DNA of 5,178 nucleotides, from UHGV virus genome UHGV-0384497; one strand, written 5' to 3'. Source of the stretch: a virus. The first letter of the stretch is position 1, and the number at the start of each line of letters is the position of its first letter. Below the pieces are notes generated by a model that had not been told where the DNA came from, searched no databases, and saw only the letters and a list, made by a program, of their open reading frames with translations. Below are positions 1,807 to 5,178 of the stretch, piece by piece. The position numbers were made by a program, and so were the translations under genes.

Positions 1807-1938
1807 ATGGCTTCTATACTTATCAGCATTATGTATGCTATTCCCCTCGTTTTGCTGTTGCTTGCTATGATTTATGGCATTATACGGCTTATTAAGTTAA
1901 TCATTAAAGAGTTTCGTCATGGAAAAAAGAAGTTATAA
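1807..1938 (+). CDS. Hypothetical 43-aa single-pass membrane peptide (MASILISIMYAIPLVLLLLAMIYGIIRLIKLIIKEFRHGKKKL). Candidate lysis or accessory peptide.
   Basis: ATG at 1807 and TAA at 1936-1938. A hydrophobic stretch of about 25 aa is followed by a basic C-terminal tail. It lies in the 145-nt gap between VP2 and ORF99 and overlaps the ORF99 start by 20 nt in another frame. It is absent from the ORF track, presumably because of its length. A T-rich coding strand inflates the chance of hydrophobic ORFs, so support is weak. Confidence 0.3.
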   Translation: MASILISIMYAIPLVLLLLAMIYGIIRLIKLIIKEFRHGKKKL

Positions 1939-2414: not shown

Positions 2415-2518
2415 TCTCTAAATAATTTGTAGTACATTTGTGCCATAAGCGGGTAACTCTTGATTATTAAGATTGTAAAAGCCTGCTTTTGGACTAAACG
2501 TATAACTCATTCTGATAA

Positions 2519-3457
2519 ATGCTTTGCGTTAATCAAATACAAGTTTTGAACCCCAAGACGGGTAAATTTATTAAAGTTCCTTGCGGTACTTGTTATGCTT
2601 GTCAAAGTAACAAGCGTTCTTCCTGGATGTTCCGTAATACGGTTGAATTACAGTACTCACAGAGTGCGTTCTTCTGTACTCTTACATACAATGATACTGC
2701 CTTGCTGGGTCTTCCGTATCACGCTTCTTCTCAACTGCGAATGCCCTTGAAATATCATTATCAACGCTGGCTTAAGCGCCTGCGCAAGGCGTTACAGCCT
2801 GCTAAAGTTCGGTATTTCCTCTGTCACGAGTATGGCGATGAGTCTCTACGTCCTCACTATCACGTTATACTGTATCTAGATAGGTCTATGTCTCTCACAG
2901 ATATGCGCCGTCTTATATCTGATACTTGGACTAATGGTAATATACAGTGTGATTATGTCACCCCTGCTAGGATACATTATCTATCTAAGTACGTTACTAA
3001 GCAGTTCCGCAACGTGAAAGTATCTGGTCGTTCAGTGGATTATATATTTAATCATATCTGGGCTAATAGAGCTCTTCAGCATCGTTATATAGTTGAATTC
3101 TACCTCAAAAAGTTTTCTTTTGTTGTAGCTAGTCAAGGCTTAGGTTGTCAGCTCCTGCGGGAGCCTGCTTTTATACGCTGGTTTTGGGATCACCTAGAGC
3201 CAGGCGAATCGTATCCTACTTATGTTATCGGAGGTCACTCTTATACGCTACCGCGTATCTATCTGCGTAAGCTTGTGCCAGATATATGGCGCGAAGCTAT
3301 TACCCCCGATATATCGCCCGAGGCTAAATATGCCCGTATGTCTGATATCGCGTCTGACGCTAATCTAACCGTAAAACAGTATGTGGAAAATGCGCGCTAC
3401 ATACAAGACCGTAAGTCTACCATTATCCGCGCTAATAACAAAAAATCCCCTTTGTAA
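2519..3457 (+). CDS. Replication initiation protein (VP4 / gpA-like rolling-circle HUH endonuclease)
   Basis: 312 aa with all three rolling-circle replication (RCR) motifs. Motif 1 is FFCTLTYN (nt about 2669-2692). Motif 2 (HUH) is RPHYHVILY, with HYH at nt 2855-2863. Motif 3 is YLSKYVTK (nt about 2978-3001), whose two Tyr are spaced Y-x3-Y as in the phiX174 gpA catalytic tyrosines. The N-terminal VPCGTCYACQ Cys cluster is typical of microvirus Rep. Confidence 0.9.
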   Translation: MLCVNQIQVLNPKTGKFIKVPCGTCYACQSNKRSSWMFRNTVELQYSQSAFFCTLTYNDTALLGLPYHASSQLRMPLKYHYQRWLKRLRKALQPAKVRYFLCHEYGDESLRPHYHVILYLDRSMSLTDMRRLISDTWTNGNIQCDYVTPARIHYLSKYVTKQFRNVKVSGRSVDYIFNHIWANRALQHRYIVEFYLKKFSFVVASQGLGCQLLREPAFIRWFWDHLEPGESYPTYVIGGHSYTLPRIYLRKLVPDIWREAITPDISPEAKYARMSDIASDANLTVKQYVENARYIQDRKSTIIRANNKKSPL

Positions 3458-3459
3458 CT

Positions 3460-3588
3460 ATGAAGTTATCAAATCGTAAAATCGGATTCTTCGCTAGGTT
3501 GCGTAAGTTCCGAATCCCTGTGCTACTGCTATTGCTGGCAGTGGTTGTTGTCTGTGTTGCTTTCGGATGGTTTTCTTTTTTAGTCTAG
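3460..3588 (+). CDS. Hypothetical 42-aa peptide (MKLSNRKIGFFARLRKFRIPVLLLLLAVVVVCVAFGWFSFLV). It has an Arg/Lys-rich N-terminus followed by one strong transmembrane-like helix. Candidate single-gene lysis protein, or a J/VP8-like basic DNA-packaging peptide.
   Basis: Its ATG is 2 nt after the Rep stop, and its TAG at 3586-3588 is 6 nt before the ORF132 ATG. It therefore exactly fills an otherwise unexplained 137-nt gap in a compact genome. It is missing from the ORF track, presumably because of its length. Seven basic residues in the first 18 aa are followed by about 24 hydrophobic residues. Confidence 0.4.
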   Translation: MKLSNRKIGFFARLRKFRIPVLLLLLAVVVVCVAFGWFSFLV

Positions 3589-3594
3589 TATCTT

Positions 3595-3993
3595 ATGAAC
3601 ACTTGTAAGTATCGAAATAATCCGTTTAATATACGGTATAATCCCGATAACAATTGGAAAGGTCAGACAGAGCCAAAGAATGGTTTCTGTCAATTTTCGG
3701 AGCTAAAGTACGGAGTTCGTGCCGCTTTTATTCTTGTCTATAACTATCGTAATTTGCACGATGCTTCTACACCTCGTGATATAATACGATATTGGGCACC
3801 GAAAGAAGATGGTAATGATACCGCTGCTTATATATCCTTTGTCTCTCAGCTGTTGAATGAAGATGAGGATATAAATACTACCCTCGAGTATGTCGTTTTG
3901 CTGTACTCAATGTGGCATGTTGAACAAGGTTGGACGCCCTCCATTTGGGAGTTTGCCAAACTGCTGAATTACTCACTAATAGAAGATCTATAA
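3595..3993 (+). CDS. Hypothetical 132-aa protein of unknown function. Located between Rep and VP1; I have no confident homology call.
   Basis: The ATG is the first one after an in-frame stop, and the ORF ends 3 nt before the VP1 ATG. Its composition is not low-complexity and it contains several W/Y/H residues (NPFNIRYNPDNNWKG..., MWHVEQGW). I cannot assign a family from memory. A peptidoglycan-hydrolase or peptidase role is suggested only weakly, by its position next to a candidate membrane peptide. Confidence 0.5.
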   Translation: MNTCKYRNNPFNIRYNPDNNWKGQTEPKNGFCQFSELKYGVRAAFILVYNYRNLHDASTPRDIIRYWAPKEDGNDTAAYISFVSQLLNEDEDINTTLEYVVLLYSMWHVEQGWTPSIWEFAKLLNYSLIEDL

Positions 3994-3996
3994 ACT

Positions 3997-5178
3997 ATGC
4001 CTAATCTAACTAAGTATTCGCTTGACCATGAGGTTCGGTCAAGCTTTGAGATGGGACAGTTAATCCCATTTTTGTGCCAGGAGGTTGTGCCTGGCGATAA
4101 GTATCGCGTACAATCTAGTACGCTTGTGCGTCTCCAGCCTATGTTATCCCCGCTGATGCATAGACTTGATTACTTCCAGAGGTACTATTATGTGCCTTAT
4201 AGGTTGCTTATCCCTAACTATGAACAACTGTTGACTGATCCCGATAGCGGTAATACTGTGCCAGGTATGGATAAGTATTTGCAATATACTGCGCATACCC
4301 TAAAGGAATTGTTCTTGGAGAAACCTTTGTTGGAGTATTTTGGTCTTGCATCGTCATTAGATGGTACACACCCCGATAATGTGATTAAGGATCTTAATGC
4401 TACTCCCCTACTTGCTTATTACCTTATATATAATCATTATTATATGAGGTCAGACCTTGATAAGCGTTATATTGATCAATTGCGCCCCGAAAACTTTACT
4501 AGTGCCGAGTTGCGCAAATACATTGGTAATGTTATGTATGTCAATGAAGGACTTGATTACTTTACTAGCGCTAAGACCTCTACACAGTATGGTAATATGG
4601 TACAGTTGGATATGGACGGTAATAATACCATTACTGTGCCTGAGATGCGTCTCGCTGAGCGTTTGCAGTCGTTTAGAGAGAGACTTCTCCGAGTTGGTGG
4701 TAAGTATGTGAATTATATTAAGGAGTTCTTTGGTGTCGAGCCCCTTGATGCTCGTGTACAGATACCTAAGTATCTAGGTGGTGACTCCTATGTTCTTAAT
4801 GTGTCTGATGTTGACCAGACAGCTCCCTCTGAGCTTGGTTCCGTTGGTGAAAGTTATGGCAAATCAGTGTCTGTTAATCGTACGGGTCAGATCGAGTATG
4901 ACGTTTACGAGCATGGTCTAATTATAGGCTTGCATTTTGTCCGTCCTCGTCCGTCTAATATCGGCGGTTGTCCTAAGATGTTTACACGACGTACGTATTT
5001 CGACTTCTTTAACCCGCATTTTTCTGCTCTTGGTTATCAAGAGATACAGGCGCGCGAACTTGATGTTGCCCGTCCGAAAGATGAAGCTTTCGGTTACGTC
5101 CCTCGCTATGATGAGTATCGTTATGGTAATGATATAGTATCTGGAGACTTTAAGCGGTCTCTTGATTATTGGCATATG
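3997..5178 (+). CDS. Major capsid protein VP1 (F-like), N-terminal 394 aa. There is no stop in the window. It continues at nt 1 in the same phase if the genome is circular, giving about 636 aa in total.
   Basis: Translation begins MPNLTKYSLDHEVRSSFEMGQLIPFLCQEVVPGDKYRVQSSTLVRLQPMLSPLMHRLD...YYVPYRLL. This matches the conserved microvirus VP1 N-terminal architecture (FxMGxLxP...VxPGD...PMxxP). Further along, LAERLQSFRERLLRVGGKYVNYIKEFFGVEP matches the conserved VP1 'erla-RGGSRY-Wl-shFGV' region. The ORF runs to the last base of the window in frame 1. Confidence 0.85.
   Translation, partial: MPNLTKYSLDHEVRSSFEMGQLIPFLCQEVVPGDKYRVQSSTLVRLQPMLSPLMHRLDYFQRYYYVPYRLLIPNYEQLLTDPDSGNTVPGMDKYLQYTAHTLKELFLEKPLLEYFGLASSLDGTHPDNVIKDLNATPLLAYYLIYNHYYMRSDLDKRYIDQLRPENFTSAELRKYIGNVMYVNEGLDYFTSAKTSTQYGNMVQLDMDGNNTITVPEMRLAERLQSFRERLLRVGGKYVNYIKEFFGVEPLDARVQIPKYLGGDSYVLNVSDVDQTAPSELGSVGESYGKSVSVNRTGQIEYDVYEHGLIIGLHFVRPRPSNIGGCPKMFTRRTYFDFFNPHFSALGYQEIQARELDVARPKDEAFGYVPRYDEYRYGNDIVSGDFKRSLDYWHM

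Follow-up and report, generated by a model that had tools for sequence, protein, structure and literature searches.

In the virus genome UHGV-0384497, a stretch of 5178 nucleotides (nt) that was analysed in full (the window) and that corresponds to a complete circular microvirus genome, an open reading frame (ORF) of 42 codons, ORF42 (3460..3588, + strand), is packed between the gene of the rolling-circle replication initiator Rep and a gene named ORF132. ORF42 is a real gene under selection, its product displays a single-helix membrane architecture, and it lies directly upstream of an endolysin-family gene whose product carries no export signal. Judging from sequence and from analogy with known systems, we consider it plausible, though short of probable, that ORF42 acts as a membrane-permeabilising, holin-like partner of the adjacent endolysin ORF132.

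ORF42, a conserved single-helix membrane peptide

The ATG of ORF42 stands at 3460 and its TAG at 3586-3588, giving a product of 42 amino acids (aa) with the sequence MKLSNRKIGFFARLRKFRIPVLLLLLAVVVVCVAFGWFSFLV. Upstream, the Rep stop TAA (3455-3457) is followed by the two nucleotides 'ct' and then by this ATG; downstream, the TAG is followed by the 6-nt spacer 'tatctt' and the ATG of ORF132 at 3595, and the 137-nt gap between Rep and ORF132 is thereby filled. The original prediction, made from the letters of the window, had described this placement and called it tighter than chance would give. The coordinates are confirmed in the sequence, and the second claim agrees with the finding that just 0.4% of random 137-mers generated with the dinucleotide statistics of the genome include a complete ORF that starts with ATG and has 40 codons or more, conservation (see below) being the stronger evidence. 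The same holds for the predicted architecture, a basic head followed by one unbroken hydrophobic helix. Residues 1-19 carry a net charge of +7 with zero acidic residues, while residues 20-42 carry no charge and form a 23-residue unbroken hydrophobic helix, the 19-residue Kyte-Doolittle mean peaking at 2.88 (residues 19-37). The head holds an invariant GFF...R..R pattern and is followed by Pro20 and the transmembrane (TM) helix, which is strongly aliphatic (rich in Leu, Val and Ile) and includes an invariant FGW near the C-terminus; the C-terminus itself (...FGWFSFLV) ends within the hydrophobic stretch. The AlphaFold2 model, based on a 17-sequence alignment, shows one continuous helix spanning residues 4-41 with a mean pLDDT of 76. 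Following the positive-inside rule, the predicted topology is N-in/C-out, with the cationic head in the cytoplasm. A lipoprotein or spanin identity was also considered and rejected: a lipobox is missing, and 6 of 17 family members have Leu in place of Cys32; the residues that precede Cys32 are VVV, GVL or VLV instead of the canonical small residue.

Intact ORF42, with a length of 42 aa, is present in all 18 clade loci of the first set and in 7 further loci; besides GenBank, loci were drawn from IMG/VR, metagenome, genome and assembly collections, and some of them are one contig fetched twice. A distant lineage represented by three loci (L033-L035), whose endolysin is 63% identical, carries a clearly homologous 44-aa version (MFNKLPSRKIGFFGKIRRFRVPLLLLLISIVVLCFSFGWASFLI), and homologues altogether range from 41 to 44 aa. 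Five GenBank microviruses obtained from human samples, with 79-88% identity across most of the genome, all harbor an intact 42-codon ORF; vaginal secretion is the stated source in the records of two of them. Hence, a small TM ORF is indeed conserved at the same position in relatives, being intact in every ORF42-clade locus examined. Its description as unannotated is likewise correct, since none of the five GenBank records has any annotation between Rep and the ORF132 homologue, and metagenome gene callers do call the ORF but give it no name.

The substitution pattern is that of a coding sequence. Variable columns at codon positions 1, 2 and 3 number 22, 11 and 33, respectively, and pairwise ratios of nonsynonymous to synonymous substitution rates (dN/dS) are 0.11-0.31 at 64-78% nucleotide identity, with length kept. 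For the same genome pairs dN/dS is 0.10-0.16 in Rep and 0.08-0.18 in ORF132, and ORF42, at 0.15-0.20 in this comparison, is under similar constraint. Invariant across 17 family members are K7, G9, F10, F11, R15, R18, P20, L23, L25, V30, F35, G36, W37 and L41, and the other five frames over the gene are closed. All this argues for a real gene under purifying selection. A terminator scan reported a 10-pair hairpin-like element with a T-rich stretch at 3522-3545, inside ORF42; because the surrounding nucleotides are not conserved in relatives, it is probably incidental to the Leu/Val codons. Together with the missing family match, this element is what would speak for a non-coding ORF42, i.e. a chance frame over a conserved DNA or RNA element, or an upstream ORF whose peptide is irrelevant, but such an explanation is effectively excluded by the codon-like substitutions, the dN/dS values, the kept length, the closed alternative frames and amino-acid motifs that stay invariant while the nucleotides diverge.

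Concerning its relation to the flanking genes, TAG, TAA and TGA are all seen as ORF42 stop codons among relatives, the spacer to ORF132 is 4, 6, 7 or 8 nt long with a varying frame relation, the spacer between the Rep stop and the ORF42 ATG varies too, and the own ATG of ORF132 is kept in all relatives. Since all three stops occur and the frame varies with respect to both neighbours, ORF42 is a separate cistron. We rejected a C-terminal extension of Rep, given the different frame and the variable spacer, and also, as a present function, a read-through fusion with ORF132 (the two are in frame in the window), given that frame and stop codon vary among relatives; in either case every lineage would have to use a recoding event of its own.

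ORF42 is an orphan, confined to a single clade of microviruses from Bacteroidales. Its best family matches are sub-threshold noise (Class_IIIsignal, E 0.12; phrog_26412, E 0.08; leader_Ms4533A, E 0.014). A word-indexed profile search with 13 ORF42 sequences against 5.8 billion clusters retrieved 16 clusters, all of 41-44 aa, unnamed and from the same clade, and exhaustive scanning of 1.84 billion representatives with HMMER yielded nothing beyond the cluster of ORF42 itself. Widening the search through Rep yielded only the same clade among viral contigs, and in GenBank phages the next Rep relatives are about 30% identical, the ORF42-bearing clade being itself isolated. Within the clade, genomes are mosaic: L011, for example, has an ORF132 that is 100% identical to that of the window, and an ORF42 that is 76% identical with a different N-terminal head (L011 and L052 compared to the window; see also L039-L044 and L054). 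Capsid proteins are 52-79% identical where Rep is 81-98% identical. This mosaicism suggests frequent recombination or fast capsid evolution.

ORF132 and its enzyme family

The gene downstream, ORF132 (3595..3993, + strand), which had been treated as an unknown gene, turned out to encode a predicted Enc34-type (PHA02564) peptidoglycan hydrolase domain. The protein has matches to phrog_873 'endolysin' (E 9.1e-25) and, in a phmmer search, to the Enc34 endolysin's catalytic domain (PDB 7q47_A, E 3e-6). Its AlphaFold2 model (pLDDT 88, pTM 0.82) has 7q47 as the sole significant Foldseek match, with probability 1.00 and a TM-score of 0.70. Residues W67, Y79 and E110, invariant or nearly so, align with Trp79, Tyr95 and the catalytic Glu131 of Enc34, an enzyme shown experimentally to degrade Gram-negative peptidoglycan (PMC8943055). 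By tblastn, homologues occur in 332 phage records, annotated as endolysin, P5-like structural protein or virion protein. In the GenBank relatives the gene is a 'hypothetical protein' or unannotated, and the label 'similar to VP3' of the MG945638 homologue looks like a misannotation. ORF132 opens directly with the catalytic domain, the NNP motif being located at residues 8-10, and contains neither a signal peptide nor a TM segment (maximum Kyte-Doolittle 0.88). Lacking both a signal peptide and any hydrophobic segment, it is predicted to need help in crossing the inner membrane.

In other phages, this enzyme family seems to be regularly paired with, or fused to, a membrane element. In Enc34 itself a holin-like ORF lies immediately upstream of the endolysin, and the enzyme bears a C-terminal two-helix TM domain (PMC8943055) that ORF132 does not have. 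In L049 the enzyme gene is immediately preceded by a two-TM ORF of 73 aa and followed by a u-spanin-like ORF that combines a lipobox with a TM at the C-terminus; L057 (3550-4812) likewise has it between a TM ORF and a u-spanin-like ORF, and in L045 and L047 it directly precedes a 71-aa two-TM ORF. The L049 segment (1321-2381) would thus make an apparently complete set of holin, endolysin and u-spanin within a 5.7-kb contig. These tailed-phage cassettes, together with ORF38-41 of Hafnia phage Enc34, share with ORF42/ORF132 a Gram-negative host and the placement of a gene of this enzyme family next to one for a small membrane protein (PMC8943055). They differ in that their holins are ~70-150 aa long, usually with two TM segments and a charged tail, and are followed by spanin genes, whereas ORF42 has 42 aa, one helix and its charge at the N-terminus, and no spanin-like gene is found in the window genome.

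The closest architectural parallel is provided by anchored endolysins. In L056 (3899-4393) and L058 (3851-4390) the enzyme is fused to an N-terminal basic segment and one TM located ~10 residues before NNP, just as ORF42 is followed by ORF132; these are single proteins, whereas the microvirus has two cistrons with a stop codon and a variable frame in between. The ORF42-ORF132 pair would then show the same order and spacing as the N-terminally anchored enzymes, split over two cistrons. A split origin from an anchored endolysin is possible, as a matter of history and not of present function. The helix itself is unlike signal-arrest-release (SAR) helices, which are weakly hydrophobic, Gly/Ala-rich and leave the membrane, as that of ORF42 is rich in Leu, Val and Ile.

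Candidate roles of ORF42

We infer the membrane topology, oligomerisation, hole formation and any lysis role of ORF42 as follows. Late in infection, or upon prophage induction, Rep, ORF42, ORF132 and the capsid gene would be co-expressed from their tightly coupled block. The soluble 15-kDa Enc34-type glycosidase, devoid of an export signal, would build up in the cytoplasm, while ORF42 would enter the inner membrane in type II orientation, with its cationic GFF/Arg-rich head in the cytoplasm and its aliphatic helix across the bilayer, Pro20 beginning the span and the conserved FGW lying near the outer leaflet. Accumulation or oligomerisation of ORF42 would breach the membrane and ORF132 would thus reach the peptidoglycan. 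In a still more unusual variant, ORF42 might be a signal-anchor detached from the enzyme, which would recruit the endolysin to the membrane, or carry it there, in trans. Two traits of holins are present, namely a small size with at least one TM domain and a gene that adjoins the endolysin gene. The original prediction of a lysis or membrane effector is in this sense partly sustained: the gene is real, the TM helix is there and a lysis role is the most likely one; not sustained is the proposed relation to phiX174 E and other single-gene lysis (Sgl) proteins, given the endolysin next door.

Several observations weigh against a holin-like role. Searches against Pfam, PHROGs and NCBIfam retrieved no holin family for ORF42 at E up to 1. 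The charged hydrophilic C-terminal domain of holins is absent, all seven charges lying in residues 1-19, and the helix has no polar face; a peptide of 42 aa with a purely aliphatic span seems hard to reconcile with the passage of a 15-kDa enzyme. In the lineage of L036 and L059 a 60%-identical endolysin, its start overlapping the Rep stop, occurs with no ORF42 at all and, as the enzyme is there without it, ORF42 would be dispensable for a phage with an ORF132-type enzyme. Among distant microviruses, no TM ORF was found at the Rep/enzyme junction in L007 and L010, and none among the called neighbours in L037; L006, L008 and L009 show TM ORFs elsewhere or in alternative frames, but the comparison is a weak one, since alternative frames of AT-rich genomes give many spurious hydrophobic ORFs. 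ORF132 could, moreover, be a virion-associated entry enzyme, instead of or besides serving lysis, as may be read from the annotation of its homologues as 'P5-like structural protein'; in microvirus Ebor, Gp7 is present in trace amounts in virions (PMC11980548). Finally, the window harbors a second small hydrophobic ORF (1807..1938, + strand), whose layout is more typical of a holin and which is kept more widely than ORF42 (see below).

Two side observations on L036 can be added. Inside its endolysin gene, at 6155-6268, there is a +1-frame ATG ORF of 37 aa with a basic head and a TM segment (MKLKLLGKLSQLGRRLKKIILAIILTLSLILFFLMTL), which is near-identical in L059 and closed in all other genomes. 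Its pilot-protein gene (8389-9566) is called as two ORFs of 177 and 204 aa instead of one of ~340 aa; the gene may be split or degraded, or this may be an assembly error, and the prophage may be defective.

Outside the tailed phages, the pair can be compared with the lysis genes of cystovirus phi6, whose P10 has ~42 aa. Similarly to the window genome, phi6 is a small non-tailed virus of a Gram-negative host that combines a very small membrane protein, the holin P10, with a muralytic enzyme, the endolysin P5, and it has no identified outer-membrane disruptor (PMC12819732); the 'P5-like structural protein' annotation of ORF132 homologues in GenBank is a further likeness. phi6 differs in being an enveloped dsRNA virus in which P10 and P5 are virion components, and a sequence relation between P10 and ORF42 was neither looked for nor found. 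Among microviruses, Ebor (Tainavirinae) encodes both a verified peptidoglycan hydrolase, Gp7, and a 45-aa membrane protein, Gp1, which recalls ORF132 and ORF42 (PMC11980548). There, however, the enzyme is of another family (HHpred match 6SSC), the host is an alphaproteobacterium, no holin is claimed, and Gp1 and Gp7 are not neighbours by number (PMC11980548).

Alternatively, ORF42 could be a membrane protein unrelated to lysis, acting in superinfection exclusion, in another prophage function or in tethering of replication or assembly, which we deem unlikely but worth serious consideration. The family occurs as integrated prophages, and its restriction to one clade and its dispensability in L036 are like those of accessory 'moron'-type genes; small TM ORFs are also common in microviruses at various positions, as exemplified by Ebor Gp1 (PMC11980548). 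ORF42 nevertheless directly adjoins the endolysin and is embedded, with spacers of 2 and 6 nt, in the co-directional block that runs from Rep to the capsid gene. A sigma-70 and terminator scan around the locus revealed no own promoter-like or convincing terminator-like signal for ORF42, Bacteroidales promoters lying outside the model of that scan.

Rather unlikely as well is that ORF42 is an accessory of lysis, be it an antiholin or timing regulator, a co-holin, or a tether or activator of the endolysin, with the 1807-1938 peptide as the true holin. This ORF encodes 43 aa from ATG 1807, or 54 aa in the longer form from TTG 1774 (MASILISIMYAIPLVLLLLAMIYGIIRLIKLIIKEFRHGKKKL), overlaps the start of ORF99, and has the classical holin layout, with a TM helix at the N-terminus and a basic tail at the C-terminus. 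A TM ORF is found in this slot in 11 of 12 relatives examined, including L033 and the ORF42-less L036; for the twelfth, L017, our script found none, and the gene caller lists a 47-aa ORF there. The slot sequences fall into at least four very different types, a hypervariability that is typical of holins, whereas the invariant GFF and FGW of the well-conserved ORF42 suggest a specific protein contact. We take the 1807-1938 ORF as an alternative holin or Sgl candidate, equally plausible as a holin and possibly part of the system. What argues against this arrangement is that the ORF, located between the pilot gene and ORF99, is ~1.7 kb away from the endolysin, and that the alleles of the two peptides reassort freely among genomes: no co-variation of ORF42 alleles with those of the 1807-1938 ORF or of ORF132 is apparent.

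Considerably less likely is an autonomous single-gene lysis protein (amurin), either E-like or MS2 L-like. MS2 L-type lysis peptides and type I toxins such as TisB and Hok are 30-75 aa long, combine a basic segment with one hydrophobic helix, and cause inner-membrane damage or depolarisation; by size, basic N-terminus and hydrophobic domain ORF42 recalls the L-type peptides. It is also lineage-specific and seemingly young, as are Sgl genes, for which de novo evolution has been described (PMC7693330). In contrast to L, with which it shares the basic and hydrophobic domains, the aligned ORF42 family has no Leu-Ser (LS) motif within or after the hydrophobic domain and nothing past the helix, and in contrast to type I toxins it has no antisense-RNA context; both kinds of peptide act without a phage endolysin, whereas ORF42 adjoins one. 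The likeness to phiX174 E on which the original prediction drew is limited to a small microvirus membrane protein with a conserved proline at the TM helix, and E does have a lysis role. E, however, is a protein of 91 aa whose TM is N-terminal and whose basic domain is C-terminal; its gene is overprinted in gene D, and it inhibits MraY, with no phage muralytic enzyme. ORF42, in contrast, shows the reverse domain order, occupies its own intergenic slot next to an endolysin, and has no sequence match to E or to Microvir_lysis (PF04517), so that the analogy is not supported. Its conservation (dN/dS about 0.15) is also unlike the fast evolution of typical Sgls. Since the genome encodes its own muralytic enzyme, it would need a membrane-permeabilising partner and not an inhibitor of wall synthesis.

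Very unlikely, in turn, is that ORF42 serves as a detached or recoded signal-anchor of the endolysin, expressed as a TM-ORF132 fusion through read-through or frameshift, or that an anchored endolysin was recently split into the pair. The two window genes are in frame with only TAG and 6 nt between them, the distance from the TM end to NNP (~11 residues) is the same as in the fused L056 and L058, and most in-frame genomes use TAG. But in about half of the loci the gap measures 4, 7 or 8 nt, which places ORF132 out of frame, TAA and TGA stops occur too, each lineage would call for a different recoding event with the ORF132 ATG kept everywhere, and the strongly aliphatic helix is unlike Gly/Ala-rich SAR domains.

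The other proposal of the original prediction, a J/VP8-like DNA-binding packaging protein of the virion, is highly improbable: the cationic head (+7 in 19 residues) and the hydrophobic stretch do recall phiX174 J, with its basic N-terminal part and hydrophobic C-terminal tail, but neither Microvir_J nor any packaging PHROG is matched, the 23-residue aliphatic span (Kyte-Doolittle 2.9, one long predicted helix) looks like a membrane span and not a capsid tether, and L036, which must still package DNA, does not have the gene.

Genome, host and implications for microviral lysis

Rep (2519..3457, + strand; PF23343, E 1.5e-18; phrog_942, E 1.1e-48), ORF42, ORF132 and the major capsid protein gene, which starts at 3998 and wraps around the circle to 729, make up one co-directional, tightly packed block. 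The DNA pilot protein gene comes next (736-1773; phrog_8689, E 1e-17), followed by the small hydrophobic ORF described above and by ORF99 (1919-2218), both taken from the ORF list, and by a non-coding stretch of ~300 nt that separates ORF99 from Rep. This last region contains three perfect or near-perfect inverted repeats at 2249-2287, 2347-2377 and 2383-2410 (e.g. CCATTGCCCCC/GGGGGCAATGG), which are candidate origin, terminator or ssDNA-hairpin elements. In the OP549878 record a hypothetical coding sequence of 64 aa is annotated in the same region.

Regarding host and lifestyle, ORF42-bearing genomes were found integrated as prophages, in contigs of 9-46 kb where the flanking genes are of Bacteroidales type (Fimbrillin_C, dihydroorotate dehydrogenase, conjugative-transposon Tra genes), and one of these contigs (L024) belongs to the metagenome-assembled genome 'Uncultured Porphyromonas sp. 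UMGS166'. A core of ~24 nt located just upstream of Rep (window 2493-2516; ACTAAACGTATAACTCATTCTGAT) is repeated at both prophage ends, the L024 copies lying at about 6893-6916 and about 12079-12102. It is likely an attP/dif-like site, in line with the proposal that microviruses of Bacteroidetes integrate in a dif/Xer-type manner (PMC3091885). The window genome can accordingly be read as that of a temperate Bacteroidales microvirus without integrase, and its host would be a Gram-negative diderm among Porphyromonas-type gut and vaginal bacteria. With a diderm host and a temperate phage, timed, enzyme-based lysis is plausible.

Lysis is largely unassigned in microviruses outside the phiX174 group. 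It is not mentioned in the first description of Bacteroidetes microvirus prophages (PMC3091885); Roux et al. suggested that M15 peptidases may be endolysins of microviruses (PMC3394797), Kirchberger et al. mentioned lysis-associated peptidases as occasional accessory genes (PMC9239249), and it was in 2025 that a microviral wall hydrolase was first verified (PMC11980548). Our full-text literature searches, limited in depth, turned up no paper assigning a holin to a microvirus. Nearly as plausible as the holin-like role itself is that this clade has abandoned single-gene lysis for a minimal two-component system, made of an orphan 42-aa holin devoid of a soluble domain and a horizontally acquired Enc34-type endolysin, the peptide possibly having been born or split off at the Rep/endolysin junction.

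The locus is a compact pair of genes of 129 and 399 nt in phages of a group abundant in samples from the human gut and vagina, and it bears on how microviruses outside the phiX174 group achieve lysis. Even if the holin-like role were refuted, the annotation is corrected, as ORF42 is missing and ORF132 unnamed or misnamed in public records. If the role holds, ORF42 would be the first holin assigned in Microviridae and among the smallest holins of any DNA phage. Its confirmation would mean that very small ssDNA phages are able to run the canonical holin-endolysin strategy, and would provide a minimal holin for mechanistic study together with an Enc34-type lysin, so far uncharacterised, from a phage with a host of the Porphyromonas type, a genus that includes oral and vaginal pathogens.

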